From: Dipteris shenzhenensis
Lineage: Eukaryota
DNA length: 64,000 bases
Strand: one strand, 5' to 3'
Assembly: GCA_047967505.1 (NCBI GenBank)
Contig: CM106538.1
In this document: positions 3,001 to 50,749 of the stretch, piece by piece
Position numbering within the stretch: the first letter of the stretch is position 1
Layout: every line of letters starts with the position of its first letter
Notes under the pieces: model-generated
The model's database searches: none
Told to the model about the DNA's origin: nothing
What the model saw: only the letters and a program-made list of their open reading frames with translations
Made by a program: the position numbers and the translations under genes

Positions 3001-4271
3001 GCAGAAGGATTTGCCATGGCTCAGTAGTTTTGTGAAGATATCTACTACTTATTCATATGTGTGACAATAAATAAGATCATTATAAAAGTTTTAGAATACA
3101 AAACATTAGAGGAATTTTGGACTCCAAAAAGGCCTTATAAGGAGTGGATTAGCAAAATGGATAAAGAACTAACAAGGCCTATAGAGGGTGCCATCACCCC
3201 ATATGAATCCAAAAAGTACACCTCCCTAGGCTTTGGTGGTTCCAAAAAGTGCACCTCCCTCTCCCACTTGGAGGGGGCCTCCACTTACAAAAATTCACCC
3301 TCTTTACACCATAAGGTGGTCCCCATCTCGTGGGTACCACTCCCCCAAAAAATTTGACTTTTTTGAAAACTTCAAAACTGACCTAAAACCCTTCCAAACC
3401 TTCCCCCAAACCATGCCTATGCACCCAAATCACTTTCCAACAGCCAAATCCTACTTCTTCTCACCATAGTCACCTTCCAACCCCTAAATCGTACTCTTTA
3501 TCACCATAATTACTTTTCAACCCCTGAATCCAATTTTTTCTCCCCATTTTGTTATGTTGTAATCTCAAATCTATGTTGCTTCCATTGATCCTATTCTACC
3601 TTGTACTAGTTTAAAATCTTTTTTCTTTTGACTTTCATGATTTATTTTTTCAAATCCTCTTATGGTTCCATTGGAAGATCACACCAACAAGCCATTAAAA
3701 AGCACCTTGCACATTGAAGTTGCACTAGACTATGCTACGCCTCTTTAATGCAGTGGCCACAAGATCGTTGACAAAGAAACATTAGATTGACTACAATAGC
3801 CATTAGATCGTTTTAACAAGTGCTCCATCTATGTTTGAAAATGTGACATGGTTTGTTTCAATATGTAGGAGATGGTCTTCAAGGCTTACATGGCTATTGT
3901 AAATTCATTGGTCATACTAGTGCTGAAGCCCAATTTACCATGATTCACTTGTTGAGAATGGAAGAAAATATTAAAAGACTTAAATATACCACGCATACTC
4001 TCCATGAACAACTAACTCAAGAATTAAAAAACTTTCTGATTCTAAAATTACAAAAAAACATCACAAGAGGCAATCACAAGATTAGTTGGTGATAAGAGCA
4101 AATTGTTGAAAGAGACTTGGTCCCTCTAGCAATATCTTGCTACATTAACTAGGAGATTAGAGAAAATAAATCCCTCTTTGTTACAAGCACAGGATCAAGG
4201 CTGTGTAACCAATGGAGAGCTTGGTATATGGTGATGGAGCAAGGAAGCATAGGGTGCAAGCTACATATTGA

Positions 4272-4286
4272 AACAGTGTAACATCT
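4272..4286 (+). repeat. Left terminal inverted repeat
   Basis: AACAGTGTAACATCT, preceded by TTGA. Confidence 0.85.
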
Positions 4287-4773
4287 CATTTGAGAACTAT
4301 AACCTCAAAAAGAGAACTCTAGGGGAATCTTTGAAAGATTTCCTCTTTTTCATGTGAATTTTATGTTTATTTGAAAAAGATAGCCTTTTTGCGTGACGGT
4401 TTTTGAAAAATTTCATAAAAACCATGCTTTTGTGAAATTTTGTCGACAAAGTTTTTTTGGAAAACGGGCACAAACACCTACACTTGGAATACCAAATTTG
4501 CAAAAAATACATTAATTTTTTAAAACCAATACAATAAGGGCCTATGCATCCAATGCTCATAAAAGGACCATGGCATAACACATTTCAAAATCCTAAAAAG
4601 GTACAAATCACATTGTTGCACAAACATACATGCCACTGATCCTACAAAGAATAATACTTATCCTTTGATCCTACACCTTCAAATGCACTAGAGCCTGAGC
4701 TTTGTGTGGTAGAAGTTGAACATCCTTCTCTAGGCTATCCACTAGAACATTCTCCGAGTCAACCTGGGTAAGT

Positions 4774-7641
4774 TTAGCTGCCACCCTCTTTTTTGCATGG
4801 CGTGTCTTGGCTTCCATTTGTTGACTGCATCCAATTAATGTCTTTAATATTTTTTGGGATATTATGTATTGTCTCCTTTGGTAAATGCCCGGCTTGTGTT
4901 AATTGAAATGCATATACCAAAATATCTACCTCATCCAATTGTAGAGTATCAATTCTTGGACAATTCTTTGTCGCCCTCTTCCCTTTTTGGCCATGCTTCC
5001 TTGTTACCACCATCTCTGGGTTATATCGACCCATGAAAGCATCCATGGACTTGGTGAAAAACCAATGGACCTCTATTGACTTGGTGTTTGAACCTTCCTT
5101 TTTGACTTTCACAACTTTAGCAATCCAAAAAGGAAATCCACTAGGATCATTTCTTGCTAAAACAGCAACCATCATACCCACTGCCAAGTCCTCGATGATA
5201 CTACTCCACATTTCTTGAACCCTTTCCCTGGCCTTTTTTAGACTTTCTTGCTCCAAGGTACATTTCTCTCTCCTCCCCAAGATAGTTCTTCTTTGAAGGT
5301 GCATGTAAATGCGCACTTGAAGAAGCATTCATACGTGCATTTACAAAATCTTGTTCAATGCATTGTGGCCAACTAAAATCTGACACATCTTGGGGGTCAT
5401 TTAGTAGGTGATTGATAAGTGTTTGGGATACAAAGAATGGATTCCACCATGTCCACACCACATCTTCAAAATATGTTGCAACATGCTGGATTGTTTCTCT
5501 AATCTCATTGACTGAACTTATAGGGTTTGCATCTCTCCCCTCCTTCATGGCTCGTTGCAACTCCCTCACTGATTGTAAAGGTTGTAAGGGTGCCACATAC
5601 AACTCACACTCTGGAACACACTTCAAAAACTTCAATCCTTTGACTGGAACCCAAGTTGGTGATGTGGAATAGAACTTCCCCCACAACAACGTCGTGCCTT
5701 CTTGATCTTTCTTCATTCGAAATTGGTGTTGAAAGCTTAACTCGTTGAGCTTCTCAATAGATCGATCAATTGGCTTGTTGTCACCAAACACAAAGTGTCT
5801 GAAATCTGTTGTTTTTTCCATGTTTGTAATTATCAGTTTTGGCACATATGCATCCTATAAAATGCGTATCATTGCCCTATCCCATGCTTCTTTCCTTCTC
5901 AGCTTTACTGAGAACTAGCTAAACATCTAATCAATATGGTCGTGTGTGTGACCCACCATAAGGAATCCTAATTTCACTTTTAGAAATATGCCTTTCTCAA
6001 CAAGCATGCAAAGATATGCCAACACAACTTGATTCTTGTTCTCTCTCGATGTGTTATCAAGTTGGACATACAACACTTTTGGAAGAGGTTGTGTAAGATT
6101 CCTCAATGCATCATTAAGAATGAAAACTGTGAGATTTCTTACATTTGGTGTCGTAAGATAAACCTTGGGGATTAATTCACCATGGTAGATCATGCATCCA
6201 ACCATGTGATATGTGATGAAGTTCTCCTCTTTCAAATCATTGGGCACTGGTTTGAAGTGTGGAAGATTGGTCTTCTTTTGATCCATCCCATCAATGATGA
6301 TGGTTATGTACTTGTCAGGCTGTTGGTAGCTCTTCTTGCGATGTTTCGCTAACTTCTTCCTTTCTAGAGCTTGCATTTCTCAATGCATTTGCAATTTTGT
6401 GATTGTTTCTTCTGCAAATATAGAAAACAATTAGATGTTGCAAGCAAACCATTTTTGTCAAAAAGAAGCAAAATTTCACGGTATCATTACACACACCTCT
6501 CTCTTGTCCTTGACTTCTATTATGCAAGACCTTCAAGTTTGCACATGTGGCACACACACCAAAGCGACAAAGCTTTGGTATCTTCACATTGTTGAATTCA
6601 TTCTTCCAAATCCTACAAAAATGATGGTATGTCACGTACTTGTCACCTGTAGTAACCATGGCATCCTTGTACATGGAATGGATCTCAAGCTTGGAGAAAT
6701 TATCTGATAAGTGCAACTAGTCACTATTTAGAAGAGCCTCGGCATGTTTTTGCACAAAGTCTTGCAGCCACAAGCATACCATATTGCCATGTGGTCCAGG
6801 CACTCTTATTTTCCTGCTATACAAGTGCAGGGGTCTTTATAGAGGTGGGCCTATAATCTTTTTAGCCTTTTGTTGCCAAGACAATGTGCAAGTCCATATG
6901 CTTTGCAACAAACAATCCTTGAAACGAATTTTGTTCATATTGTTTTCCGTAGGTCTTACAAACCATGCTAAATAAAAATTTTGATCATCTTTATTCATTT
7001 CAACATAATTTTGCCACCGTAAGACCCTTAATTTTGCAACCCCAAAAGTGACTAGGCACATTCTGCTACAGCAAAGAGTATTGCAAGTCTCTTTCAAATG
7101 TGCAGTGTCTAGCATTATACGAGATCTCCCTCTTGTGTAGCTAGACTTTTTGACGTCCACATTCATTGGTCTTCCCTTTAGTCTTAATAGACGAGATTGA
7201 ATTCCACTTCCCCTTTTGTGATAGCCGAGACAGTCATTGAGATCCATCTGGATTAGATGTCCCTTGTAAGAAATAATTTCTAGCTCCAAAAACAAAACAA
7301 AGAGAGCCATTGAATGAACTTAGACATGGACCACATACCTGATAACACTTGTTGACCTCTCGTGCTTGCTTCGACATCTATTATTTCATTGTCTTCAATG
7401 GGAATATCAGGTCCATGGATTTGAGTACCTAGGCTTCTATGTCCACCATCATGCTTAGGTAAAGGAGTAGGAGACACATCCAAGGTGGCCAAAAAGGTTC
7501 CACCACTAGTACAAAATACATGCAATGTAGCAAAGCACCCTTGGAACTGTGAGAAGAAGAAATTGAGATAGACGTAGTGTCAAATAAACCTCCCATGCAG
7601 AAATTTGGCAAGCTTCAAAGGGGATGCCCCAAAAGTGCCAT
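4774..7641 (-). pseudogene. Sola/DUF7869-like DDD transposase (stops and frameshifts; GT-AG intron at 6496-6412)
   Basis: Motifs CCSRMC, FCRIWKNEFNNVKIPKLCRFGVCATC, IIIDGMDQKKTNLPHF, LYVQLDNTSRENKN, FLMVGHTHDHID. Removing intron 6496-6412 joins ORF 6716 in frame to ORF 6376. Start and end coordinates are approximate. Confidence 0.8.
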
Positions 7642-8319
7642 GCAACAATGAAAGGTAGAAATTATGTGCCTGACCATAAAAGTCAAGGTTAGGTTTAGGG
7701 TTTTGGAGCATAGAGGAATTTCTAAAAATAGTATATTTTCTCTATAAACATGAGATTCTCACATTTGTTTCTCATTATTTCCAAATATGCCCAAGAGTTC
7801 AAAGAATCACCAGGTATGTGCAATTTTCTTATGGTTAAGTGTGTTTTATTTTTAATTCAGTCATGAAATCAAATTTTACTGTGTGCTTCAATATAATTTA
7901 CCGTATTTAAAAAATGGGGGTGGTGTGCTTGAATATTATTTAAAGTACTTTATGTTTGCTTTTTTGAAAGCACATTGCTTTGATTGCTAGTCTATCCTAT
8001 TTTACTAAAAATAAAAAGAAACATTTCTAAAACTAAATTCCTCTATATTCTACCCCAATCCCTTCTTGTTAGTTTCTCTAACCTCTCCATCTCTCCCTCT
8101 ACCATCTACCCCTCTCAGCTCTCCAGCTTTGCTAGGTAAGCTCTCCATCTCCTCATGCATTTGTTTAATTTTTTTTGGACTGAAGGGAGCTGCTTCTTCC
8201 CCGCCATCTTTTTCTTCTTCTTCCCCACCATCTTCTTCTTCTTCTTCCCTGAGCTCCCCCACTGATGCGCCCGTCGATTCTCCTCCCCAACCTCTTTTTC
8301 CCCTCACAGATTCAACACA

Positions 8320-8486
8320 CCTTCCACCATGCATGCAACCCAGTCGATGATATCATCGATTGGGCGCTTGCCCGGTCGATGATATCATTGACGAGCTGGT
8401 AGCCTGTCGATGATATCATCGACCGGGCAATGCGCCCATCAATGATATCATCGACTAGGCTACCAGGCTGCATGCATGGTGGAAGG
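8320..8486. repeat. Long hairpin containing four copies of palindrome GTCGATGATATCATCGAC
   Basis: Copies at 8343, 8375, 8406 (perfect) and 8438. Outer arms CCTTCCACCATGCATGCA (8320-8337) and TGCATGCATGGTGGAAGG (8469-8486). Confidence 0.92.
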
Positions 8487-8499
8487 CAAGGTGTTAGCC

Positions 8500-8500
<1 letters not shown>

Positions 8501-8552
<52 letters not shown>

Positions 8553-8659
8553 AGGGAGAGAATCAGAGAGGGAGTTAGGGAGAGAGGGAGAGAAGGAGAG
8601 AGAGAGTTAGGGAGAGAAGGAGTTAGGGAGAGAGGGAGAGAGAGAGTTAGGGAGGTAGG

Positions 8660-8709
<50 letters not shown>

Positions 8710-8716
8710 GTGAGAG

Positions 8717-8766
<50 letters not shown>

Positions 8767-8772
8767 GGAAGA

Positions 8773-8814
<42 letters not shown>

Positions 8815-8859
8815 GTGAGAGGGGAGAGAGAGAGAGAGAGAGAGAGAGAAATAGGAAGA

Positions 8860-8952
<93 letters not shown>

Positions 8953-8972
8953 TAGTTGGAGAGAGGGAGAGG
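8501..8972 (+). repeat. Interrupted (GA)n microsatellite upstream of the ParB-MTase gene
   Basis: About 470 bp of GA dinucleotides with recurring AATAGTGAGAGGGG and AATAGGAAGAAAG interruptions. Confidence 0.95.
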
Positions 8973-9352
8973 GTTTTTTGGTAAATTTTGTTTATTTTTT
9001 GGTCAATTTGTATTGAAAAGCAAAATTTTCTCTTCGAATTATGGAGTTGTTTTTTGTGTTTTTAAATTAAATTTGTGAGAGAGAGAGAGGTGTTTTGGCC
9101 ATAATTTTGTAGTTTTTGCATTGTAGTGTTGTTACTTTCCATGCTTTTTTCTTTTTTATTCTCTAGTCCAAAATCATGTTCCAGTAATAAGCATGTCGGC
9201 ATCTTTTTCCATGAAGAATGTAGATGTTAGAAGCTCAAAGTCTTTTTAGAAACCATCAAACTTGTTGTACTAGCTTTTGTTTTTTTCAACTTGAGATATT
9301 CTCTCCATGATATCATAATATTTTGACATTGTTTATGTCTTTTATAGGTATC

Positions 9353-12300
9353 ATGTCGAACAAACAACCTTTCGGAGAAATCCGTGTCTTTGGAAAGCCC
9401 ACATCGGAGGATGCTTCCAAAAGATAAGGGTGGAAAAGAAAGGCACCAAGGAACCAAAGAAAAGTGTCAAGGATCCAAGTCTTGAGGTGCAACAGCTTCA
9501 ACAGATTTATGATGTTCCTGCTCCGTTGGATGTTCGTTGCAAATTCGAAAATTATGGGACATAGCGAAGTACACAATAACATTGATTCAAAATGGACCAT
9601 CAAAGTTGACACTGATACAAAAGAGATTACTTTGTTGCTTCCAAAGACACTTCCCACTGGAAGATCAGTTTTTAAGCCAATAATATAGATTAAAGATATC
9701 TCAAGAAGTGAGTCCAATGAGGAATGTGTTGAAATGCTTGGGATTGATAACAATAAGAAACCTATTGTTTGTATTGTTATGGAAGAGAAGTTCTCTTTGA
9801 AAGCTGTTACTCCACCCGCTATAGCGGAACAAATAAAACAAATCAAAGAGGAAGGGAAGGTTAGTTACTATCGATAAGTAATTTCTAATTTTCTATGTTT
9901 ATGTAAATTCTTTTGAATACTATGAGAGATTCAACTTTGTTTTGTGTGTCCAGAATCTTATTTATCACTTGACAAATCAAATTGTGGAGGTTGATGAAAT
10001 AATCAAGGAGATGGAGGTATCAACTTCCAATAGTGATTCTGAGGAGCATACAGAGGAGGGTTATGAAGAAGATACCGCAACATCACCAATCAAACCAAGA
10101 GATTCTTCAAAGTCAAAAGGAAAGGGATCTTCCATGTTGGAGCTGAAAATTTTGGGTTTAATACACAAGGATTAAGAACTCCCATGGGTTCACATGGATT
10201 GAGAGCACCTTCTCTTTTAGGCCATCATGGATTGAGTGCACCCCCACGTGGGCATGGTTTGAGCGCACCCCCAAGTCGGCATGGTTTGAGTGCACCACTC
10301 CCGAAAAAATGACCTCTATTGGCTACAAGTGCGTTTCCTCTTGAGTCTTATGAGGATGTTGTTGAGGAGACTCCATCTATTGCACAAGGGAAAAAACAGA
10401 GTAAACCAGGATCAAAGGCTCCAAGGAGAGTACAGCCATTGGATATCATTGAAATCCCAACTAGTGGTGAGCTGCAAGTACCAGGAGCTGACATTGGAGA
10501 TGGTACCTCAGATACACAACAAAATAGAGTCCGAGCAAAGGTACAACAAGATAACCTTGTGGATCGACAGACTTTCTTCTTGCACATTGATCATGTTATT
10601 AAACCTCCTATTGATCCTAGGACTGCTGGCCTTCGACCATTTGAGGTGCATGCAATACATCCTTTCCATATTGAGAATTTGAAGTCATGAAGGAAGGACA
10701 ATCTACATGCACAAGTTGTGAACTACATTGTGCTCGTGGATACAAAAGATTGTCTAGACAATGCATCTTTTGATCGTCGGAAAGCAAATGATTATAACCA
10801 CTTTGTTCTTGGAGGCTTCCATTCAACAAAGGCAAAAAGGCAGTTGAATATTGAGTTTCCATGCAACTCTCATTACAAGACATGTAATTGTACAGTTTAT
10901 GCTGGTTTGACTGATTTGGAGCAAACTTACTGGCTTTTGATCACAATAATGACAATGACTATAGGAAGTCCATGTCTTGGATAGAACGGGTTCGTTTCCA
11001 TCACAATGAGCTCATTTACAAAACTCAATGAGGATTGTTCTTTGATCACTCTAGAGTTTCACTTGTCTTTGTTGAATGAGACTAGGATTTCCGCAACAAT
11101 TAAAGATCCGTCAAGGCCAAGTGACAGCTTCAGATCATGGGACGGTTTCAAATTGCATTTCATAGTGGAGAAGTTTGGGATTTGATAAATGCAATTTTTT
11201 CAAAGTCGGAGAATTTTGAAATCAAAGGGCATAAAAAACTCAAACCTAAAGGAGTCAAGAAAGAAACCTAGACCTTGAGAAGGCATTACCTGAAGAAATT
11301 CGAGCCACAGCATAGAAGAGCATGTAGGGAATTAAAGATGAGATTCTAATTAAGTATGTGCTTGGCAGAGTGGTGTTTGGGGATCTCTCTTTAGATGAAA
11401 TGGCAATGAATTTGATGAGTAAGTAAACTTCTCTCCTTTGCATCATGTCTCTTCTTGATTTTACGTTAATCTCTTTACGAATAATGTTTCAATAGACTTT
11501 GTTTCAACTGTAAAAGTGAGAAGAATTTTACATGTGTTTTCAATGCAGGCATAAAATATACATGAGAATGCAGGAAGCAATGATCCAGCAATTGAACATG
11601 CCAGATTGGGATGCTATTCAGGAGGAGTATCCAGAGAGTAGTAGGATGGAGAGCTTGGCTCCATATTTCAATGTATTCAAAAGCATGGTATGTCAAATTT
11701 GGTATACATATGCTAATGGAAATTTTCTTTCGAATTGTAGATTTGAATGTTTAAGATATTGAGCTATTTTTTTGACAACCACCTCCAGAAAAGAGGCAAG
11801 AAGGGATCTGAGAGTAGTATGATGCCTGCAAGCTTTAAGCGATTGATTGACCGGGCTGCAAAAGAAAAAGACCGTCAAACTTGACAACAATCTATAACTC
11901 TTAGTGATGACATGTTAGAGTTTGACAACCATCCACCAAACTTTTATCGTGTGCTCAACGAAGATTGCAATGAATTGTCGAAGATAGTTCCAAAGAATGA
12001 GTACACATTGGTCATTGCAAACAAACCATATAGATTTGATGTTCCCGGATCCACCTTTGATGAGGTCCCTTACAAAGAAAAGGAACTAATGAGTCTCCTT
12101 GACCAATTCATGTCAATTACGATGGCAACACTTTGGCATGTCATAATTTTTCATTCAAACTTGCAGTATGGGGCAGTGATGAGTGTCATCAATGATAAAT
12201 GTGCTAGATGTGACCACCTTTATTGATGAGTGTAGCAATGAAATGCAAAGATTTTTTTGGCTCAATTATTATTGTTATAATTGTGGTTTCTTTTGATAAA

Positions 12301-12822
12301 TTTAAAACTTATTTTTGTTTCATGTCGTAGGATGAAACCCAATGTGAGACAAATGAAAGGACATCGATTCACGTCTACTATAGAAAACATTTCAGTTGGG
12401 TATTGTATCAAAAACCACAACTCCTAATTAATCAACTCATAGATTTGTTTTCAAATGAGTATGAGTGGGTACTCGATTTATTTGCTGGTTCAGGCACAGT
12501 CACAGCACGTGCCTTAAAAAAGGGTCGAAATGTAATTGCAATTGAAAAAGATCCTATTCAATGTGATTACATAAAGAAGAGAGTGACTGCTATTCATCAC
12601 TTGCCTGATGAGCATCAGGAGCTTGGTTTGAAAGGTGGGAAGTTCAATGTAGATTCGGTGGTAGCCTCGTCAAGGGAGCCCCAACCTCTTGAGCTATTGA
12701 AACCCGATTTTATGGAGGCAAGCGAGCTAGCTGATACATGGGAGAAGGAGGTTGTGAAAGAGAAAGCGATTGACAAACCCATACAGGAAACCCAGACTGG
12801 GAGGGTGATGAAGATGAGGTAG
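9353..12822 (+). pseudogene. Spliced gene: ParB-like domain fused to beta-class N6/N4 DNA methyltransferase
   Basis: ParB-like segment LRPFEV..HIENLK..NYIVLVD..FVLGGFHS..VYAGLT..LAFDHNNDN (10570-10990). Catalytic motif LVIANKPY (NKPY at 12020-12031) precedes QKPQLLINQLIDLFS..VLDLFAGSGT..GRNVIAIEKD (12409-12552). Frame-preserving introns at 9860-9953, ~11423-11548, 11688-11788 and 12226-12330 (donor apparently mutated GT>AT). Several stops and frameshifts. Confidence 0.85.
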
Positions 12823-13136
12823 ATGACACATATGGGAGAATTGAGTAGACTCTAATTATGGAATTGTATTGACAATTTTTTGTATTTGAATGGTTTCAAT
12901 AGACAAGTGTTCTTAAGACATTTTAGAATCCATATGCTTTGAATGTTTTGAACATTTAGTTTTCCCCATTAATTTGTTGTTGGGGATGGTTATGAAGATG
13001 ATGTAGATGACGCATATGGGAGAATTGAGTAGACTCCAATTATGGAATTATATTGACAATTTTGTGATTTTGAATTGTTTCAATATACAAGTGTTCTTAA
13101 GACATTTGAGAATCCATATGCGTTGAATGTTTTGAA
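12808..13136 (+). repeat. ~180-bp tandem duplication at the 3' end of the MTase gene
   Basis: Unit ATGAAGATGA..GTAGATGAC..ATATGGGAGAATTGAGTAGACTC..GAATGTTTTGAA occurs at ~12808 and ~12992. Confidence 0.85.
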
Positions 13137-13529
13137 AAAGGAGGCATTTACTCTTTCCCATTAATTTGATGATATTTTTTGTTCTTTCAATACTTTATGT
13201 GATACCACAAAGTTTAACTTAAGAATTTTGATAAGGTTATGTTACTACACACAGGAATGAAAGTTGTATCATGTAGTTTTTCTATTGAAAATAAAAGGTC
13301 AAAGGAAGGAAAAAACTTAGAGACTTCTTGATTTTTCTAAATACATTGATATTGTGCTCTGTAGTCAAGGTCCTTCATAATTTGCGAGCATTATGTACCA
13401 AAATTGATACGATTTTAAAAGTTTTGAAAAATTCACTACACAAAATATGACCTTTTTTTGAAATTTTTATAATTTTAATGAATTTTTTAGGGAATCTTAA
13501 AACAAGTACCAATGTTACATACTTGAATT

Positions 13530-13544
13530 AGATGTTACACTGTT
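13530..13544 (-). repeat. Right terminal inverted repeat
   Basis: AGATGTTACACTGTT, the exact reverse complement of the left TIR, followed by TTGA. Confidence 0.85.
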
Positions 13545-15775
13545 TTGACTATTTTGTAATTGTGATGCATTACTTACAACCATGTAGTTGTGTATTTTTC
13601 TAATGTCATCGTTCTTTTTACAAGAATTTTATGGAGGAGGTTACTGGAAAAGAATTCCTATAAAACTTTGTACTGTAAAGAGTGTAGTGAAGAAGAGGGA
13701 TCTTCGTCAGTGTGCATTGTGGCATACAATATTGCAAGAGGTTGCACCTAGGAAATATTGTAGACCTATTAGAAGTTGTCCATGCATGTGATGCTGCAAG
13801 CATTAGTAGAGAAGGGTACGTAGTTGTATATAATGTCTTTGTAAAAGCACTTTGAGGTGAAGGTGTGAAGAATCTTTTGTTTCCAAGACCATTACATGTT
13901 AGAAATGTAAGAGAAAAATAAATTCTACTCTCCAAGATCTATTGTATGGGATTTATACACATTTCAGAAAGCATGATGTTGGAAGGCACAAACAAGACAA
14001 GGCCAAGAGAGTAGAAAGAAAGGTGAACAAGCTACCAAGGGGGCAGAGTGTAACAATGTCTTTTTGGATGTACACAACGTCCAAGCTGCAATGGTAGTGT
14101 TTTACAATATGGAATCATAGGGTAAGTGACATTTCTCTTGTTTATTTGAGTCGCAATTTCTTAAAGGTCTTTTTAAATAGTCTAAATCTTATAATTTTTA
14201 AGATTGTGAATAAAAGTTAGTATTTGTGATTAAGTTGGTTATCAAAGGCCATAAGTTAGAGAGGTTGAGTATTACTTTGATGAATGAAGCCCTTGAACAT
14301 GCCAAAAAAAGGGAAGTTAGAGAGGGCCACTTTTTTAGCTCTCATTTCCATAGGGTAGGCTAGGGCTTGGATGTGTTTTGATCACAAAACAAGTAGATGC
14401 TAATGCCCTACAATGTGGGTTTGGAGCTAGTAATGCCACTTGCACAAGGTCAAATTGACTGGATTTCTCTCCGTCTAGACCTTTGGCAAAGTCCTCTCAC
14501 TATGACATTATTACCCAAGCCTTGAGCTCTTAAACGGACCTGTTCGCCACCCTCAGTCCTTGAACCCATGAGTTGAACCATGGTGAGTTGGGATGTAGAT
14601 GGATTCCATGATTATGCAAGATAGGACCACAGCACTAGATTCTTCACTAGAATTGTAGAGCCCTTGTAAGGGGGCCCAATAGACAATCTTATGCTTCATG
14701 ATGAAAAACTCTCTATCATTGTTTGACATTGATTTGTGCTAATTGATGCCTTGACCATCATTTTAAATTGTTGTAGACTATTTGGAGCTCCTCTTGAAAT
14801 TTTCATAAGCTCATAAATGTTTTGTTTTATATTTGGATAGAAGAGTACTTCTCCTCAAAGATAGTGATGGTTTGTAACATAGTTTTTTCCCATCTTCTTG
14901 AAGGATTTTATACAATGATTGTTTCATCTCTTCTATCCAAATTTTCTTCCTTTGAAACTTCCTAATAAGCGCATGGATAAATAAATAGATTTGGGTATTC
15001 TATCAGAAATTGCATGTTGCAATTTCTTTCATGGAATTTCGAACTCTCGTATAATTTATGGTGTACATTCCAATTTGATACTACAATTTTATTCTAAAAA
15101 TGTAAATGTCTACAAGAATTTCATATATCATTGAATCAAATGGAGACATTTCAGAATCAATATTTCTAAATGCATGACGTACTCTTGTTTGTTCTTTATG
15201 GATAAAGACTTTGATATGTCTCATTTTTAAAATACCTGGAGACATAATTTTGTGCATGTGGACTTTGTTGGGGACTCCTCTCAAGGGGTTAAAGATATTG
15301 TGTGATTTGTTGGGTTCTCTTGGAGTCGGTCGGCTAGTCGTATGATCATGAGGTGGTTGCGAGGCTTTGATTGGTGGACCATGCAAGTATTTGGAGGCCG
15401 GCCAATGCATGCAGTATGTGTGGTGGTTCCTTGGTTGAGAGCAAGTAGTTTTTGAAGGTTCACGTGCGGCAACTAACTTCTCTCTCAAGCTGATCAATAT
15501 ATGAACCATGGAGGCAATTGGATCCATCTCTTTGTCAAGGCCGTCGAGCTTGTAGGAGTCGCAACTAGTAGTTGCTTATAGTTCTAGGTATAGGAGTCAT
15601 TTGCAGGTCTTGTAATAGCCAACAAACCCCGTAGGGTTGAGGCTCATTTTGTCAACAAATAATAGGAGGAGTCGAGTCGTTTTCATTGCAGTATTTCATC
15701 TTTTCTATATCACTCTTTTGATGCTATATGTGAAGAGTTGATCTCCAATTAGTTTGATGCTTTGAGAGACAACCG

Positions 15776-20131: not shown

Positions 20132-20461
20132 TCAGTCTAGCATCTTTGTCCAGTCAAATGGATCCCACATCTTCTGAAATTCAATAGCTGACTTCTTTTG
20201 TTGATCATCAGACTGCTGCCTGCGCCCCCTGTGCATCTCTTCTTCTGGCAATTTCAGCATGCCAATGACCACATCTTGCCCAAACTGACTCTTAAAATCA
20301 TTCTCATTATCAATGACATGAACATAGCCAGCATGCAAACCAAACTCCACATGGAAGTATGGAAAATTTTTTGGAATACAGGCACGTAAGCCTTTTTTGC
20401 TTGTGTCAATCAACTTCTTAGCATTGTGCTGACTCCATTCATCCTCTGCCTCGTCAATTGC
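20132..20461 (-). CDS. CWF19L2: CwfJ-family spliceosome disassembly factor, last coding exon
   Basis: AIDEAEDEWSQHNAKKLIDTS..IPKNFPYFHVEFG..WDPFDWTKMLD* matches the plant CWF19L2 C-terminus; acceptor TTTGGACAG; phase 0. Confidence 0.93.
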   Translation of the reverse strand, partial: AIDEAEDEWSQHNAKKLIDTSKKGLRACIPKNFPYFHVEFGLHAGYVHVIDNENDFKSQFGQDVVIGMLKLPEEEMHRGRRQQSDDQQKKSAIEFQKMWDPFDWTKMLD

Positions 20462-21656
20462 CTGTCCAAATGACAAGGTGAGTCTTTAACACAGTTTAAA
20501 TGCTTAATTTTGCAATTTCAATGCCTATATGCTGACAATATTGCAAGAGCTCATATTGTTGCTAAGAATTATTTAAGTGACCTTTCAAAACCAAATCCCA
20601 CTTCAAAGCATACTCCAAACTCCTTGAAAGGTAACAATATCAAATCTTTCCAGTTTCCATCATTATCATCATTAATCTGTTTCAGGCCATGTGTTACCAT
20701 GGCATTCCAACTTAATCTATTATTACTAAAAGAATGTATATTTCAACAGGAGGAGGGGGCCAAAATGCCACTTGATTACTAGGCAAACTAAAGGGAGGCT
20801 TATCTGGCCACACCTTTTACCCTACTAGAAACAAAAATTCAAATCTATCAGGAGTCGCACTTCAACCCATCATAACATAGAGGCTTCAAAAAATCCTCCC
20901 ATAACACCTCAGACCACAATCATAATGTCTATCTGGCAAATCCCTATTGTCATCTACCAAGAGTCCAACTTAGGCCGAGAAACCTACATGGCTTCCAATG
21001 CCTTATTGCTCAGAAGTGGAGAAGACAGCAGCAAAGTACCTACAAGCGCAAACTCTGAAGAATCCAAAGGACATCCAAAAGAAAGGATAGAGCTCGAGTT
21101 GAAGGTGTTATTGCTTAAAAGACCAGAGTGCCCAGGAACAGCTGGAGGTGGGAAGCAATGATAAGAAAACCCTTGAGTTCAAGTCACAAAGGCAGAGATA
21201 ATAGCCTCGAAGGAAATCCATCTCTGCACAAACCCTCCCTCCAAAAGTTGTTAAAGCCAACGTCTCTACAATTGTTATCACCACATATTGCTACATCCTG
21301 CATACAGCTGAAAAAAAATAGTGAAACCTGCTAGACTGCCGTGCCCTTCACAAATTGCATAGGTAAAAACACAATGTGCACACACATATGAATTACTGCA
21401 ATGAATGCCAATCACTGGAGTCTGGCATAGAAGATGCAGACCCTAGCTGAGAAGGTGAGGGTGTGAGGAGATGCCACCTGATGGCTTCACATACAAGCTA
21501 GGGCCTCAAAACCCTCCTCTATGACACAAACACAGTGTGTCCAATCAGAAAGCATTAACACACATGCACGGATGCAATATTGAATCTGATTGGATGCCCT
21601 AATGGTGAGTGTGACACGTCGCATAGCACCTAGGTTAGATCAATAAAGGTGTAAGC

Positions 21657-33298: not shown

Positions 33299-34007
33299 AT
33301 TACAGGTTAATGCTCAAATTAATGTACTCATTGATGCCATTTCTGGACCAACTAGTAGTCGTTTTAAAATCTGACATCAATTAAAGCTAAGCTACGGCAT
33401 TTCAATGAGCCAGTAAAAATGTTGGCCTTCCACAAGAAACCCTAGAATTGTGACTACATGCGTAGTATCTTCTTCATGTGAGTACCTCTCACACATGTTT
33501 TGTATGCTGTCCCTCTCCGATTGTGAGAGTTCAATCAATACAAAGCCAACTGCTTTCTCATTCTTGCTTGCTCCTGCTGACTCAACTCCCTCTTAAGGTG
33601 GGTCAAGAGCAGGAGCAAGGCCAATATCCTCTCTGTAGATGATGCACATGGACAAGTTTGGCAGAGCTGAACACTAAAATTATGGAATTTTACAAGAGAT
33701 TCAAAATGAATGCATCCTAACTAGGACATCAACCAGTCTCAGTCTGCCTCAAAGTGCTTGCAGACCTTGGGAGCACAAGCAGAGTGGAAACCTTTTCAAA
33801 CATAGTTCCAGCTGTTCCAAGCACTCGTTAATGCCACTAATAGAACAACGCAAGACGCTTTCACCTTAGAATCTCATCACATTAGCAAGAAGAATAAAAC
33901 CAACCCAATGAAGACAAAAGAATTCAAACTAAGTCCAAGAGTAACCAGTCATTCAAGATACTGTTTTTCCTCATACCTTTCCAAGCCAGAAATGAAAGCA
34001 CATGTAC

Positions 34008-34220
34008 CTTTTTAAAATAAAGCGGAGCCTGCTTTGCCACTTGACGAGGCAGAGGGATACATTCCACCAAACAATGGCGACGCTGCTTTGCTAAATGAAT
34101 GGCAGTTTCCAGAAAAACAACATCCTTGTCTTGCTCTGCAAACATCCTTAGCAGGCACTTCTTGTAATTACGCAACTCTTCCCAGACATTTTCATCCAAG
34201 TTTCGAGAAGCTCCTTCATG
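34008..34220 (-). CDS. CWF19L2: CwfJ-family protein, penultimate exon (71 codons)
   Basis: HEGASRNLDENVWEELRNYKKCL..VFLET..RHCLVECIPLP..APLYFKK; acceptor CCCTTACAG and donor AAG|GTACAT; joins the last exon in phase 0. Confidence 0.93.
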
Positions 34221-36239
34221 CTGTAAGGGAACATATAATACAGTTAGCAATTCTGATTCACACACTGCCCACTATCTGTTACAACATACCCACCTGAAGG
34301 AAAATTTGAAGCAATGAGTGATTAGATAAGAGAATCACCATATACACAATGACATCAAAAGAACACCACTCCTGGACAAACACAACTTCTATGTGAAAAT
34401 AAAACTTCCAACTGTGACTCGGAAGACCCTTTAAGGGGCAAAGTTAAAACAGAAACATGGTACAAAAATCCAACAAAAACCCTATCAAGCAATTTAAGCG
34501 TACAATGTCATCTATAGTGCCTCCTGCTAACTGCAGTTCAGGACATTATATTCTCATGTAATTGCTCAATAGCAACCAGAATGGGAATCTCTTGCAATTA
34601 CTGAATAGCGATCAGAATGTGATTAGGGATGATTAAGATACCAGCTGATGGGTTGTAGAGCATTGGTGTTGCTTATCTGGAATTAGAACTACAACAGTCT
34701 CACAAACCCGTGCTACATTCAGCCTTATCATGAGGCTAGTGAGGGATTTGTTAGGAAAATGGTCATTATAACCAGGGCCATACCACTCAAGCCAAATGGA
34801 GGCGCCTGATTGTTTTTTCAATGAAGTGCATCTCAATAATGGCAAGCTGGCAATAGGTCAAGTGCAATTGTCAGGTGTTTTCCAATATACAGAGAGAAGT
34901 GCAATAAGTTGAGTGCAATTGTCATGTGTTTTCCAATATACAGAGAGAAGCTCCAGAAAAAATTTTGCCAAGCATCTCTCGATTTGCAGAAGCTCTTCAA
35001 GTTAGGATGCCCATTTTATAAATCTGTTCCAAGATGAAATGGGATTAAAAAAAGGAAAAATACTGAATTTAAGTGACAGTAACTCACCTTCAACTAAGCC
35101 TTGTGCTTTCATAGCCAAGGTAGGTCTAGTAAGCATACCGTATGGAATTTTCTGTACAGTACAGTATGGTACGCATACCAAAAGTAATAGTGCTTTTTCT
35201 TTCTTTTTTTGGTTAGCGGGAGAGACGAGGGGAGGGGCAGGGTTGTTTGAAAAAGCAAATTTTTGAGAAGGGGTGTGGTTCAAATGTGTCCCCTTCCTTG
35301 TAACTATAAAATGTACCTAAAAATCCCTTTGCCGCTTTAAATCAATTGGCACTTGTTTGTGTACAGTTGCCACCTCTTCCCTTCTCATCCTACCTCAAGG
35401 CTGGTTTCTACCCCTTCCTACAGCCGACAAAGTCCTCTTTCATATTTGATGTGACAAGGCTGCCCCTTGGCTCCCTTTTTGTTTCTCTTCTTTGCAACGG
35501 CCTGAGACATTTCATGATTAAGAACGTTCCGGGAACTCCCGATGCCAGAACAAAAAAGTTTGGGGATGGGGGAACATAAAAGAGCAAACGGGAATGCCAC
35601 ATAATATGACACATCATCAATCACATGCAACTATACAAGGGGGCTGGGGGTGGGCTGAGCTGTGAGGGCTGAGAGAGTAGGAGAAACTGTAGTGAGGGCT
35701 GAGAGGGTAGCATAGGCTGGAACCAGAGCTGAGAGGCAATAAAAGCACAGAAATGGGCGCAAACGCACAGTTTTGGCCTGCTTTGCCAGTCTGTGCCACG
35801 CCAAATCTCGGAATGCCAATGACTGCATGGAAATGCGCTCCGGGAGTGGGGGATCGTGTTCCCTCGGTGTTCCCCAACCTGCTTGGCATTCCAAGAATGT
35901 TCAAACTGTTCAGACTTCACCATCCATGCCATGGTGCACACAACCTCGTAGACTGTAGAGAATAGACTCTTAAGTCGCGAATCGTTACTTAAGTATGTTC
36001 TGCAATGTTGATCTAGTAATAAGGTTCGATTAAATCTCTTTGTGTATTATTTAGTTCCATGTATGATGTATGTAAATCAATAGTCAACTATGGTAGAATC
36101 TACTTGATTGTTGGTGGTGATTAATTAGTACATTCAATGGCAGCTATTAAAATAACTCCTCCTCATACGCTACATCTTATTGTGTCAAAGCATGTTTTTT
36201 ACTTATAAAAGCTACAGGTTATAAAGTGCCCTATGGAGT

Positions 36240-43384: not shown

Positions 43385-45441
43385 CATGAGCCAGCTAACT
43401 TTGCACAAGACCAGCATTGGGCTTTTCTTGTTACGTGTCGATATAATCCCGATGTTCATGATGTTCATGAAGGGTCGCGTCGACAAAAGAGAGCACGTAC
43501 AAGATACAGGGGTCGATGAGAAACGCCGTCACGTCAACTAGGATAGATGAAAAAAGGAATACAAGATACTTGTACCTAGACCTAAAGGAATACAAGGTAC
43601 TTGTACCTAGCCCTAGGACTAAGTGTCCTAGGTGTCACATAGAACTAAGTGTCCTATGAGGCCTACCAGGCACAAACGCTACAAGTGCCTATATTTATGC
43701 CTACAAGGCACATACCATAGCCTATAGGGCATCACTAGAACCACCAGGAGATGGCCTACAAACCCCCCTCCATGGGATGGGCTAAAGTACTCTGGAAACG
43801 TCTCAGAATACCTGGTATTTTCTGGTCATCGTGGCACATGTTCCTCCAAAAGGATATAGCCACCTACGAATGTGCAAGGGATGTCAGATCATGTAACAAA
43901 GGGAACCAAGTGTAAAGCCTGTCGAAAGACTTCGAACTTCAGACGAGGAAGTGCCTCTATAAACATATCTCCTATGTTGTCCTCTATGGGAAGATAGGAC
44001 AACTCTATGTCTCCTGTTGACAACCGCTCCCGAACATAATGATAGTGAACTTCAATATGCCTGATACGCGCATGAAACACTGGGTTACGCGCAATGGCCA
44101 AAGCACTCTGACTATCAGTGTAGACCATAGTGGAGGATGTCTGGCGAATACCAAGATTCGTAAGTAACTGTCGAAGCCAAACACACTCTACTGTAGCGGT
44201 GAAAGCTGCCCTGTACTCAGCCTCATAGCTAGATGTGGCAACTGTTGGTTGCTTCTTGCTGAGCCAAGAGATACATGAATTGCCAAGCAAAAAACAATTG
44301 CCAGTATGTGACACTCTAGTGTCGGAACATCCTGCCCAGTCACTATCCGTGTAAGCATGCATAGTAAGTGAACCCTGATCACCATAGAAGAGGGCTAAAT
44401 CCTGAGTGCCTCTAAGATATTTGAAGACTCTCTTCACTGCCTGCCAATGCTGTGAATTGGGCATGTGCATGAATCTGCTGAGCTGACATACTGCATACTG
44501 TAAGTCAGGTTTGGTGTGACATAAATAAATAAGGTACAACCGAAACTGAATTTAAAAACTGTCCACAGCTCTCCCTTCTCCAAAGCTCTCCCTCTCTCTG
44601 GACAAACACTAGGGCCCAGGACAAATTGTCGGGCTGGACCCCCCCGAAGGTCTTTATTACTTTCAGAAAAACTGTTACAAAAGTTCAGCAGGAAGCTGTC
44701 TCGTAAGTCTCTCTCATAAAACGTCAAAAGAACTCTCTTTCTTACAAGAGCTTCAAGCCCCATTCAAATTGGCAACATGCCACTTGTCTAAAATCTAGAC
44801 TAACTCTTATTACAAGCCACATAGGGCCATTCTGGAGTCTTCCAGGCTCTCGGTCACACGAACCGCTTCCTAGGTGCTTGTCAGGCTCCCATCTCGCTTA
44901 GGAAAATAATCCTTCCTAGTACCTGCAACAATTAATTAAAGCGCACCACCATGGTACCCATTAATTGTTAGCGCTTTGCATGCAAAATAACACACTGTGG
45001 ACTAATCCTAGTCACGGTGGGCGTCCCCACTGAACACATGTGCACATCTAAACAAATATATATATATATATATAAATATATATATATTTTCTCTGGTTGA
45101 CCGGAGTCAACACTCTTGATTATAATTAAAGAGCTTCGACCCAAGGTCAGGGCGCCTTAATTATAGCCAAGTCTCTCCAACCGAGGTTGGCACATCTTGG
45201 TTAACCGGTGTTAACCCCTCTTGGCGCATGCCAAGTCTTGTTGACCGAAGTCAACGCTCTCTGACCATAGTCAGGTTTACTTGACTAGAGTCAAGTATCT
45301 TTGACCGTAGTCAATCCTTTGACCATTAAAATAACTCTTTGACCGTAATTAACACATATAAAACTCTTTAATTATGATCAAATAAATGGTCAACTGTACT
45401 TTGACTTAGGATATTTACATTTGGTGACATCCCCTCGGCTT

Positions 45442-48400
45442 CTATTCAGTTGACCTCAACTGAAAAGCTTCCTTGTAAACATCCAAAAGCTGTGGATGAT
45501 CGGATAACATGTCTTCGTCCATCCACTTGGCATCTAATGCCGTATAATTCTTGAATTTTACAAGATACCTGTAAAATTCTTTACCCTGAGGGCCTTTACG
45601 TACAATATGGTACACAATTTGCTCTGGCTGAAGGACTTCCTCCAGCTCATCCACTTCTGGTGGATCTTCTGATACTGGTTCTGTAGGCTCTGGTCCCTGA
45701 AATTTCTTTAGAAGACTCACATGGAATGCATTGTGAATCCTCCAATGCTCTGGCAATGCTAATCTGTATGCAACCTCATTTATTCTTTCTGTAACCCTGA
45801 AAGGGCCATAGTATCTGGGAGATAACTTTGCATACACTTTCTGTTTGCCTTTAAACTTGCGGAGCCTAGCTTTTTCAAACTTTAAAAGTACCCAGTCCCC
45901 TTCCTTGAGATCCAACTGTCTCCTATGTTTATCTGCAGCCCTTTTATGTTTCTCTTGAGACCTTTCAATTGCTGTCCGGACTTGGCTGTAAGCTGTCTGG
46001 AGGTCTCTTACAAACTGATCAGCTGCAAATATTTCATCTTTAGTCCTCAATATAGGTGGCAAAATCACCTTCCCATATATGACTTCAAAAGGGGCTTTCC
46101 CTGTAGAGCTATGTACTGTATTATTGTAAGCAAACTCTACTAACGGTAGGTACTTTTCCCAGTCTGAACTTTGGTCACCCACGTAGCATTTCAGCATATC
46201 CAAAATGGTAGAATTTGCTACTTCACTTTGACCATCTGTCTGGGGATGGAAAGAAGAAGAAAAATTCAAATTCGTCCCCATGTTATCAAATAAAGCTCTC
46301 CAGAATAGACTGGTCATTCTGGGATCTCGATCACTAACAATGGACTTAGGCATACCATGATGTTTAAAGATCTGTGCCATAAACAACTTAGCCATATGAT
46401 CTGCCTTTATGGTTTTGCGAACCGGAAGGAAATGAGCTTGCTTGCTGAATCTGTCTATGATAGTCCAAATCCCGTCATTTCCTGACTTTGATCTTGGCAA
46501 ATCAAAAATAAAGTCCATTGTAATATTTTCCCATGGTGCCTGAGGCACGGGAAGAGGCATAAGTAGGCCAGGTGCCTTCTGTCTATCATACTTCATTTTC
46601 TGACACGTAAGGCATTCAGTAACAAACTGATGTATATCTTTCCGCATTTCTGGCCAAAAGAAATACCTCTCTAGTGCTAGAGTTGTTGCTGTAATTCCTC
46701 TGTGTCCAGCATAGGGAGGTGCATGGCATTCCTCCAAAATCTTTTTCCTCATCTCCTGGGTGATGCATAGGCAATCATCTTTCATTAAATACCCATCTTT
46801 CAGGGAATAGTGACTGGTGGATTGCCCTTCTTGCATCTGCTGTAAAATTTCACCAAAATCAGAATCATGAGCATATTGTTCCCTCATGTCTTCCAGGTCT
46901 TGATGATAAGCAATAGTTACATTATTGACCTGGGGTCTTCGGGACAAGGCATCTGCCACTCTGTTCCGAATTCCTGGAGTATGGACAATCTGAAAATGAT
47001 ACATTGACAGCATGTTTGCCCATTTCATATGCTTCTCTGAAAGCTTGGTCTGAGTCAAAAAGTATTTCAGACTTTGGTGATCTGTTTTAACAGTAAAATC
47101 TGCACCCAAAAGGTAATGTTTCCAGGTATGGATAGCATGAATTACAGCCAATAACTCTTTCTCATAGATTCCTAAATATCTTTCCGCATCCCGAAGTCGC
47201 CTGCTTTCATAAGCTACTACATGACCATTCTGATGCAATGCAGCCCCAACACATTCTCCACAAGCATCACAATCCACATCAAAAGACTGATACATATCCG
47301 GAACTACCAGAATAGGCTCTGTAGTCAACTTTTCCTTGAGTGTATTGAATGCTTTCTTCTGTGATAATCCCCATGTGAAGGCTGCATTTTTCTTAGTGAG
47401 GTCATGTAATGGAGCTGCGATATCAGCAAAATGTCTGATAAACCTTCTGTAGTAAGAACACAAGCCTAAAAAGCTTCGAACTTCATGCACAGTTTTCAGC
47501 TCTGGCCATTCTTGAATGGCACGGATCTTCGCTGGATCCATTTGTATCCCATTCTTGGATATTATATGCCCCAGATAATGGATTTCTTCCAAGAAGAACT
47601 CACTTTTCTTGCTGTTTGCATAGAGCTGATGATTTCTCAGCTCTTGAAACACTATAGCAAGATGTTCTCTGTGGTCTTCATCTGTCTTAGAAAAAACTAA
47701 GATATCATCAAAGAAAGTACCGGTAAAATGCCTGTACTTCCGGAAGATGCGATCCATCATTCTATTAAATGTGGCTGGAGCATTTGTCAATCCAAAAGGC
47801 ATCACTAAGTATTCATACAACCCGAATGTTGTGCGGAATGCTGTCTTATGCACATCCTGAGGCTGTATCCTCACTTAGTGGTAGCCACTCTTCAAGTCTA
47901 TCCTGCTGAAAACTGAAGCTCCATTTAACTGATCCAAGACATCATCAATACGCGGAATAGGGAATCTATTCTTGATGGTCATTTTGTTCAGTGCGCGATA
48001 ATCAACGCACATACGGAATGAACCATCTTTCTTCTGTACTAACAGTACAGGGGAACAAAAAGGAGACGAGCTGGGCTGAATCAAGCCTTTGGACAGCAAG
48101 TCCTGTACTTGAGCCATAATCTCCTCTCTCTGAGTCGCACTGACTCTATAAGGGGGTCTGTTTGGTGGCTCACTACCAGGCATTAACTCTATCTGATGAT
48201 CTTCTGGTCTCTCTGGGGGTAACTCCCCTGGCAAAACATCAGAAAAGCAATCTTTAAAGTTTACCAAAAACTGAAACTTATCTTTGTCTGCATCATTCAT
48301 TTCAGCATGCATATCAGTCTCTTTTTCTTTTACAAAAACCATGTACGCAGAAATTGCAGACTTTATTGCTTTACCGCATGAAACATCAGATACAATGGGG

Positions 48401-50103
48401 ATAGTGTCCCCTTTATTCCTGGCAATTACACGCTGATTTTTCCCCCTATGTACAAATTCCAGCACTCTTTCAGGAAGAGTCAACTTCACTGCCTTACGAT
48501 GAAACCAAGGCATCCCCAAAACTACATCATAATGTTTCAGTGGAGAAATGAAGAAGTCTTCCTGATCCACATAACTCTGAATATGAAGACGGAGCTTCCC
48601 TATCAAGGGAGTAACTGGCACAGGATTCCCACAAAACATTTGATCGGCATCCAAAGCCCTGCCTAGCTCTTCCGTCTTTATTCCCAGCCTCAGGGCTAGA
48701 TCCTCTGATATGAAATTATCAGTAGCCCCTGGATCAAATAAAATCAGCGCTTGCTGGTCTCTAACTTTGCCCCATGATAGCAGCAATTCTCGTTCTTCTG
48801 GGTTCAAAGCATGACCCAGTATATCAGGAATACCCCCCGCCATTGGCTTTTGCGGTCCTCGTGGCTTCTCTGCCTCTTTTCCCTTCGATGATGAAGGCTT
48901 TTCTGGGCACTGGGCAGCCACATGCCCCTCTTTACCGCACCTGAAGCATTTCCCATCTCTACGGAATTCCGCTATCTGTTCAGGGGTAAAAATAGATTTG
49001 CCCTTATAGGTCTTTGAGAACTGAGTACCCCTCGGCTTCTGAGACTGAAACCCTTTCTTTTCAGCCTTAGGGGACTCTTTCTTTTCTGATTTTTGAAAAT
49101 CAGATTTCTTTTTATCAGCACGTCCTGCATGCAAGGATGGCACTGTAGATGGATCTTGTAGCGGTACAAGACTCGCTACTGAGGCTGAATGCATAAGATC
49201 TTGAATATTCTTTGCCCCCAAAGCATTCACTACTGCCTGAATTCTTGGAGTGAGACCTGCTCTGTACTTCCTCATCTGGGTACCTTTGGAGATCTTTTTG
49301 AACGGTGCAACCTGCAAATAAGCATCCCAGAACTTTTGGTTGTACCCATCCACTGTATCTCCTGCATCCATGTGCAAGCTGTCCCAGTCTTGAAGAACAT
49401 GGTCTCTGAACTGTTTAGGCATGAACTGCTGGTAGAAGGCTTTCTTGAAGCCCTTCCACTTTCTTGGGGCTGACCCATCTGTAGTCAGTGCACTCCACCA
49501 TGCACTAGCCGTTGCTGTTAAGTGTAAGCTGACCATTCTTAATTTGGAGGATTCTGAAAATTTCTCTGTACCAAATGCAGCATCAAACTGTCTGATAAAC
49601 TGCAATGCTTTGTCTGTATGACCATACTGTCCATTGTAGGTCATAAACTTGACAGATTTTCCTCCCTCTTTAAATTCCTTGGTCGCTTTGGAAGACTTTC
49701 TCTTCCCAGACTTCTCGTGTTCCTTCTTCCTGGATGGTTTATCTGATAAGGAAGAAGAAGACACAGAAGTCGAACTCGAGGTAGACGGTGATGGACTAGG
49801 AGATCAGTGACGATGCCTCGATCTCTTTTTACTATGGAACCGTCTCCTATGAGATCTATGAGATCTCTCTCTCTCAGACTGTACACGGGAGTGTGCCTCT
49901 GGCATTGGCACGTCATATACTGGATCAGGCATAGCCTCTGCTGGAAACAAATGCTGAGCCCTGGGATCCCTTTTAAGATTTTCCAGCTCTTGTATACGAG
50001 TGCGTACCATTTGTTCAAATTCTTGTTGAGTTTGTGGCACATTCCTCTGTCTTGGATGCTCATCCCTATCTTGAGAATCCCACTGGATAGGTGATTGATC
50101 CAT
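45442..50103 (-). pseudogene. Single-frame gag-pol (gag, protease, RT, RNase H, integrase, chromodomain) with two in-frame stops
   Basis: [45 protein letters not shown]. Stops at 49804-49806 and 47875-47877. Confidence 0.9.
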
Positions 50104-50749
50104 ATTCTGAGATCTGCAGATTTCTCACACAGTGCGGGTAACTGATGCACACTACCTTTGCTTTTCCAACAGAAAAGGTACCTCAACAAGAGGTGTTTTG
50201 CATTCACAATCTATGCCAGTACTGGCTGTCAGTTCAAGGCATGTACCCACACAGTTGCCAAAGCATCATCAACTATGTTGCCCTTTTCTGGCTGCTGCAG
50301 ATGGCTTCAAAAGGCATCTGTTTTTCCCTCTTTTTACTGCTCAAAGGCATGCATTCTCCTTTTTCTGCAAATCTCTGTTTTCTCTGCTTTTCTCTGGTTT
50401 TCTGCTACTTTTCTGACAGTAAAAACCTGACAGGCAGGAGAAAATTGATAGCCAAAACTGTCTCTGCAACTGTCTCTTTTTTTTTTTTTTTTTTTTTTTT
50501 TGAAAACAGTAACCAGATGGAGTGACTGCTAGTTAGTCTAACCAGACTAACTGGTTCTGGTTACACCAACCAAACTGATCTGGTTAGGCCAGATTAACTG
50601 GACTAAAGTTGAACTAACTGGACACTGGTTCAACTAACCAGAGTTAACTGACTACGGTTGACTTAACCAGGGTTTCTCTAACCACAGGTCAACCAACCAG
50701 GGTTTAACTGTACCAGGGTTAACTTAACCACTGGTCTGCCAGGCTGGCT

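Follow-up and report, generated by a model that had tools for sequence, protein, structure and literature searches.

The window examined here, a stretch of 64 kb (64,000 nucleotides) of Dipteris shenzhenensis contig CM106538.1, has a plant-like gene content and contains, at 4272-13544, an element of 9,273 bp bounded by terminal inverted repeats (TIRs) together with a flanking TTGA duplication at both ends, which is almost certainly a TIR (cut-and-paste) DNA transposon. Two genes within it form a divergent pair: a DUF7869 transposase on the minus strand and, as the second gene on the plus strand, a fusion of a predicted ParB-fold domain to an amino-methyltransferase (ParB-MTase). The features of the element are as follows.

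4268-4271, plus strand: target-site duplication TTGA (4 bp), left copy
4272-4290, plus strand: left TIR, beginning AACAG (relatives begin AACAC); the contig of another copy matches from 4273 inward
4774-7319, minus strand: broken DUF7869 transposase gene (PF25273, E 3e-29; tblastn match 4837-7082, best E 9e-74)
8342-8456, no strand assigned: four TCGAT-N6-ATCGA palindromes, starting at 8344, 8376, 8407 and 8439 (spacing 32, 31 and 32)
9350-10465, plus strand: decayed sequence, probably the 5' part of the ParB-MTase gene, judged from frame pieces
10562-10965, plus strand: predicted ParB/Srx-fold domain, broken by a TGA and a frameshift at about 10913-10921
10811-10825, plus strand: P-motif position, GGFHS
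10939-10947, plus strand: DHN
10966-11417, plus strand: candidate DNA-binding part, helical, following the ParB domain; interrupted by stops and, at about 11233-11250, by a frameshift
11532-11693, plus strand: linker exon remnant (match to relative P0043 at 11250-11693)
11780-12223, plus strand: permuted amino-methyltransferase, first half, with motif IV NKPY at 12020-12031
12403-12822, plus strand: methyltransferase second half, with SAM-binding motif DLFAGSGT and an acidic tail (PF01555, E 1.7e-12)
13526-13544, minus strand: right TIR
13545-13548, plus strand: target-site duplication TTGA, right copy

In its longest piece the window transposase shares 37% identity with the intact transposase (897 aa) of locus L039. 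The N-terminal part of the transposase is rich in Cys and His, and its motifs may resemble those of the Sola superfamily; the name DUF7869 occurs in 0 papers of the literature searched. Other copies of the element were found in one public DNA run, covering nearly its entire length. TIR pairs were identified in the window and in loci L022, L023, L039 and L065, and a 4-bp duplication in two of these five elements with both ends (TTGA in the window, TGTT in L023); L022, L039 and L065 show no target-site duplication, and their assemblies may be collapsed.

Elsewhere the window also carries Ty3 and copia retrotransposons and a LINE-type endonuclease. A Ty3 chromovirus-type element with long open gag and pol frames (44535-52000) lies inside copia remains, and its LTR stretches are 100% identical over 300 nt, as in a young insertion. 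Exons of a host CwfJ-domain gene (PF04676, PF04677) lie about 13 kb apart at 20132-20485 and 33924-34271 (minus strand).

The sequence-only reading had joined two open reading frames, at 10319 and 10718, across a single TGA into one ParB-like pattern. The two do share a frame, in which HIENLK (10667-10684), YIVLVD (10724-10741), FVLGGFHS (10802-10825) and VYAGLT (10895-10912) all lie; however, the breaks exceed the one TGA (10688-10690) and include frameshifts, and the closing LA..HN of the pattern is off-frame, behind the frameshift at about 10913-10921. The interval proposed for the domain, 10570-11000, agrees with its core (about 10562-10965). An intact relative, P0058, aligns to 10466-11414 in three pieces and frames (E 9e-48), the first two pieces being 41% and 44% identical, and because of this match the resemblance of the window domain is not a matter of chance. 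A second frameshift follows at about 11233-11250; relative to the Ginkgo protein, the methyltransferase part of the window copy lacks a match for about 43 residues. With its stops, at least two frameshifts, methyltransferase gap and decayed motif IV, the window copy of the ParB-MTase gene is a pseudogene. Recoding of the TGA at 10688-10690 was rejected: the column holds Lys, Met or Gln, and other breaks surround it. With exon 1 of L039 as query, tblastn gave no match in the window before 10481. The read-through domain had no match in Pfam, 0 of 33 candidates in a word-index protein search and one chance match among PDB sequences; the methyltransferase piece had 0 of 27 candidates in the word-index search.

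Several further peculiarities of the second gene were noted. Very deep contigs (about 290-870, against a depth of 6-9 elsewhere in the element in run X1) cover only 8962-10806 in four of four public DNA runs and turn away at 10806; apparently this is a high-copy derivative holding only the 5' part of the gene and ending just before the P motif. A short tandem of roughly 27-bp units, encoding a GLSAP-like peptide repeat, occupies 10190-10310 in the 5' part, and other copies of the element are without 27 bases at 10238. A 154-nt direct duplication (92%) lies at the 3' end of the methyltransferase gene (12799-13136).

Relatives were gathered with the unaltered methyltransferase piece 11885-12223 as query, which gave 52 proteins; P0035 and P0049 were spurious repeats and were removed before the motif count. 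Ten relatives were looked up, with Ginkgo, Chara braunii, Adiantum nelumboides, Riccia and Diphasiastrum among the named sources. The upstream ParB-fold domain is present in the proteins of Ginkgo, Chara, one Adiantum and one further relative, and the gene models of Riccia and Diphasiastrum hold the methyltransferase part without it. A profile of the four upstream domains brought in 20 additional proteins (from 2,123 candidates), and closer alignment gave 142 loci, of which the 80 kept for counts share neighbouring accession numbers, are probably one data set and hence are not independent. Among viral contigs, none of 469 candidate stretches held a relative.

The layout of the element recurs in these loci: where the upstream sequence measures at least 3.3 kb, a divergent DUF7869 transposase precedes the gene in 12 of 12 cases. 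L039 represents an entire element, with 37-nt TIRs, the transposase ORF, a 573-aa first exon and methyltransferase exons, and its ParB-MTase gene is spliced. Stops interrupt the ParB exon in 28 of the 70 distinct related rows. For 35 distinct sequences free of stops, with pairs too close or saturated left out, the median dN/dS was 0.027 (range 0.016-0.068; 24 of 595 pairs usable) for the ParB core and 0.055 (40 of 595 usable) for the helical part. Intact relatives are under purifying selection, and the ParB-fold domain is strongly constrained. The fusion of ParB and amino-methyltransferase belongs, as second gene, to a family of TIR transposons in streptophyte plants.

Three local arrangements were seen in passing. 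The Chara braunii gene model GBG86584.1 (P0021) contains two ParB-MTase units in tandem; in L025 (4033-6332) an element's right end adjoins the central part of an oppositely oriented transposase gene, which probably reflects nested insertion; and past the right TIR of L022 (10952-15592), long direct repeats and inverted repeats form a complex array.

The methyltransferase is a permuted (beta-class) amino-methyltransferase of PF01555, its motif IV preceding the SAM-binding motif I. Its best PDB matches are DpnA (E 3e-8), CcrM, M.MboII and M.RsrI, with DpnA and CcrM nearest. Motif IV reads DIPY in 44 of 47 related loci and NKPY in the dead window copy; SPPY was found in none of the 47 loci or of 50 representative matches.

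Fold tests were all carried out on an intact relative, P0059, and not on the broken window sequence, to which the P0058 alignment provides the link. The P0059 model (pLDDT 79.6, core mostly above 85) superposes on Myxococcus ParB (7bnk) with Z 10.5 and an rmsd of 2.0 A over 95 residues, the alignment extending to model residue 159; matches to sulfiredoxins end at 146. In a comparison with 48,161 representative PDB chains the best eight all have the ParB/Srx fold: PadC (Z 9.9), pNOB8 ParB (9.1), KorB (8.6), SerK (7.5), two sulfiredoxins, SbnI and Atu1540, the first unrelated chain standing at Z 5.0. Foldseek against PDB placed ParB, Noc, KorB and Srx in its top ranks, with none at E 0.001 (best 7.2e-3), and five viral models match P0059 at E of 0.001 or below, three of them named partition proteins. 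At the level of sequence the signal is weak: a PHROG match to a ParB-like partition protein at E 0.0011, no ParB_N from Pfam, whether in the read-through of the window or among four relatives, and a comparison with profiles of four phage ParB_N domains that is not significant (E 0.11; reversed control 0.57). Structure searches with the P0059 model thus returned the ParB/Sulfiredoxin match that the sequence-only reading had anticipated, and the domain very probably adopts this fold, judged from the model. Behind it, alignments to 5k5a/5k5d, 6t1f and 8qa9 continue into the helical part at rmsd 3.8-5.5, where pLDDT is 51-74; that to 6t1f, 135 residues at rmsd 5.5, is a weak helix-turn-helix match.

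The second distinctive component of the element is the palindrome array between the genes. In the window the palindromes span 8344-8454, and the whole array is also one long inverted repeat that folds as one long hairpin (z -10.9); inverted duplication alone could produce part of this pattern. TCGAT-N6-ATCGA occurs five times in 64 kb, against 0.76 expected, a count that is not a blind test, the pattern having been drawn from the data beforehand. As a family pattern the N6 spacer was rejected, being exact in only one of the 80 loci; N7 fits the relatives, with 208 sites in 45 of the 80 loci, against 5-18 sites for 12 other spacers and 6-19 in Markov controls (n=20). Of the 208 N7 sites, 198 are situated upstream of the ParB exon at a distance of 500-2000 nt, and none is inside the transposase gene. 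Their consensus, AANTCGATRC-NNN-GYATCGANTT, is present in up to 15 copies; linkers vary from site to site and the palindrome core is kept. Spacings group at 31-33, 40-43 and 50-54 bp, and the 28 distinct distances are consistent with a periodicity of roughly 10.4 bp, a fit equalled by one in 10,000 random draws. Of 22 loci whose upstream sequence measures at least 1500 nt, 19 contain an exact site, and such sites occur in every clade of the protein tree. The window, despite only 41% protein identity to relatives, has an array of its own. No palindrome sites were seen in L024, L046 and L065, and the intact, high-depth family of L039 and L040 has one or two sites each. The TIRs lack the motif, and in viral contigs the consensus palindrome appears in five, as single sites only. 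The phased array may be a loading site for the enzyme. Immediately behind it, still between both genes, lies a long GA-rich simple repeat (8470-8990).

From these sequence comparisons, the best reading appears to be an amino-methyltransferase that loads at sites and marks the element encoding it, a reading to which we would give about an even chance (probability roughly 0.5). A dimer of the protein would bind the inter-gene palindromes via the helical region behind the ParB domain, and the ParB domains would self-associate along the phased array, with the canonical CTP switch either absent or altered. Such self-association would concentrate the methyltransferase on the element, where the enzyme would lay N6-methyladenine or N4-methylcytosine on promoters and body, and the self-mark would most likely keep the element active or regulate transposition. 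Observed-to-expected CpG ratios of 0.27-0.87 in elements, often above the flank of L009 (0.32) and not above that of L022 (0.68), speak neither for nor against protection from 5mC; young elements would show an excess of CpG anyway.

An unlikely alternative is that the array has nothing to do with ParB-MTase and serves the transposase, a host factor or a hairpin, the domain being, for example, a metal-dependent nuclease or NTPase. The residues E51, H59, H110, D150 and H151, a set of His, Asp and Glu that would suit such an enzyme, are conserved at 93-100%, the transposase has a Cys/His-rich N-terminal part of its own, the window array forms a stable hairpin, and one intact family gets by with just one or two sites. 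However, the array lies far from the element ends, whose TIRs are free of the motif, and the varied linkers, kept core and helical phasing suit binding to duplex DNA better than a hairpin.

In its nucleotide-binding motifs the domain departs from ParB. The register of these motifs was set by eye from Spo0J (1vz0; AGERR, with a helix ending EN that corresponds to DHN) and from the weak profile comparison at E 0.11. The P motif was not among the search patterns that gathered the 80 loci; E51 and R53 were. The sequence-only reading had likened the window to a ParB signature with G-x-H-R. The motif in the window reads GGFHS; in the relatives it is GGSHS, and the Arg column of GxxR holds Ser in 69, Leu in one and Arg in none of 70 rows. 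Conservation of GGxH(S/R), raised earlier as a check, is therefore borne out for the Ser form (GGSHS in 64 of 70 distinct relatives) and not for the Arg form (0 of 70). The Arg position is occupied by Ser, Thr or Cys in the Chara, Adiantum and Ginkgo rows. The Glu of Box II and that of Box III are catalytic in ParB. The Box II column here is Ser in 69 of 70 rows and Box III is His-Asn (68 and 67 of 70), the Asn alone being kept and the Glu replaced by His. Sulfiredoxins carry their catalytic Cys and an Arg within a GGCHR motif. In the family the Cys column is Ser in 69 of 70 rows, Cys appears only in two Ginkgo proteins, and there is no Arg.

The idea of a canonical CTP-binding clamp is weakened by these counts, and such a clamp is doubtful because the P-motif Arg is absent, replaced by Ser, Thr or Cys throughout the family. 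Because the defining Arg and Glu are missing, the family, as far as its sequences indicate, is outside the ParB CTPases, though its presumed working resembles that of a ParB-parS module joined to a writer enzyme. A nucleotide-gated sliding clamp with a rebuilt pocket, which would load at the palindromes, close on CTP or ATP and carry the methyltransferase along the element, is distinctly unlikely. The best superpositions are with nucleotide-bound ParB dimers, Box III helix included, parS-like palindromes are present, and the P-motif Gly (G108, 69 of 70), the Box III Asn (N152, 67 of 70) and the Arg near the C motif (R53, 69 of 70) are kept, while the nearly invariant R115 could perhaps replace the lost Arg. 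Against such a clamp, R53 is Cys or His in Adiantum-type rows and in the window, and the Arg absent from all 70 rows is the residue whose change from R to A, according to PMC12704722, abolished NTP binding in the ParB-fold binders tested. Passive cargo, a captured gene without function for the element, or a chance resemblance to ParB is highly improbable. In its favour, the window copy is dead, related rows carry stops, and Pfam and the phage profiles are silent on ParB_N, but this reading is largely refuted by a layout fixed in all 12 long loci, the structural match, relatives that extend from Chara to Ginkgo, and a dN/dS of about 0.03.

The family shares features with several described systems. 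With bacterial ParB-parS (Spo0J, Myxococcus ParB, KorB, Noc, PadC) it shares the N-terminal fold and Box III helix (Z 8.6-10.5), a helical region behind the fold and palindromic sites in cis; it differs in having GGSHS in place of GERR (1vz0) and His in place of the Box III Glu, and in that the plant protein is fused to a methyltransferase and encoded in a spliced gene of a eukaryotic transposon. Fusions of ParB with an N6_N4_Mtase domain are, according to PMC12704722, typical of and enriched in phages. Those found beside phage terminase genes have the same domain order (PF02195 and PF01555 in four of four scanned), and differ in keeping the Arg (GGHQR, NGHTR), in having DPPY, and in a methyltransferase 23-29% identical to the plant family. 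By tblastn, the ParB domain had no match in 50,697 phage records.

An analogy in position is to the anti-silencing protein VANC of the Arabidopsis VANDAL transposons, likewise a second transposon gene with element-specific repeats in non-coding DNA; PMC5735166 describes target repeats in non-coding regions and an effect across the whole element. VANC removes 5mC, whereas the plant family has a methyltransferase domain and palindromic repeats. By analogy, ParB-MTase may occupy the place that VANC has in VANDAL elements, and VANC may serve as a model for its working.

Prokaryotic-type amino-methyltransferases in eukaryotes are also represented by Marchantia MpDN4MT1, bdelloid N4CMT and the clades of Iyer et al. 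2016. In the passages concerned, N4CMT has the same Pfam family name as the plant methyltransferase and contains a chromodomain (PMC8885841), and MpDN4MT1 has TSPPY and no extra domains (bioRxiv 10.1101/2021.02.12.428880); the plant family differs from both in its DIPY motif, its ParB-fold partner and its mobile gene. The ParB-linked eukaryotic methyltransferases in passages of PMC4738411 are of two kinds, a fusion to a ParB-type HTH (chlorophytes and chytrids) and one to FHA (haptophytes), and the present fusion is not among the eukaryotic methyltransferase clades described in those passages.

By language-model features the nearest named Atlas cluster is DUF3723 of the fungal Starships (0.95-0.96), a conserved Starship cargo gene of unknown function according to passages of PMC9156397. 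Starships differ in using a tyrosine recombinase, Pfam DUF3723 had no match in the relatives scanned, and homology to DUF3723 is a lead only. Unnamed clusters from molluscs, sponges and basidiomycetes score, together with DUF3723, 0.94-0.96 against the domain; possibly there is a wider eukaryotic group of ParB folds on mobile elements. A more far-reaching and fairly unlikely version would have a ParB-fold clamp with a rebuilt nucleotide pocket load at the array and spread 6mA or 4mC over the element against host 5mC silencing, with Starship DUF3723 and uncharacterised animal proteins as further ParB folds of mobile elements. DNA-modifying enzymes also travel aboard the TET/JBP-carrying DNA transposons of fungi, with another enzyme and other transposases; passages of PMC12730594 argue for passive exchange of cargo there, and ParB is absent from them. 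The literature search found no description of the present element; subscription papers, Repbase entries and bioRxiv supplements were outside its scope, so an earlier description is possible.

The family appears, from its sequences, to consist of DNA transposons with a ParB-fold methyltransferase as second gene and an internal palindrome array, and is new to the literature searched. It points to mobile elements as a source of bacterial-type amino-methyltransferases in Chara, ferns and Ginkgo, with the methyltransferase part only in a liverwort and a lycophyte, and thus bears on the question of candidate enzymes for writing 6mA or 4mC into plant DNA. It adds to the range of the predicted ParB fold a strongly selected protein of a eukaryotic transposon whose P motif lacks Arg. 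Protein and candidate 23-bp site are available together, which makes the site-loading model directly testable; if loading and spreading were to prove true, the family would represent a new anti-silencing strategy and possibly a tool for site-directed methylation.
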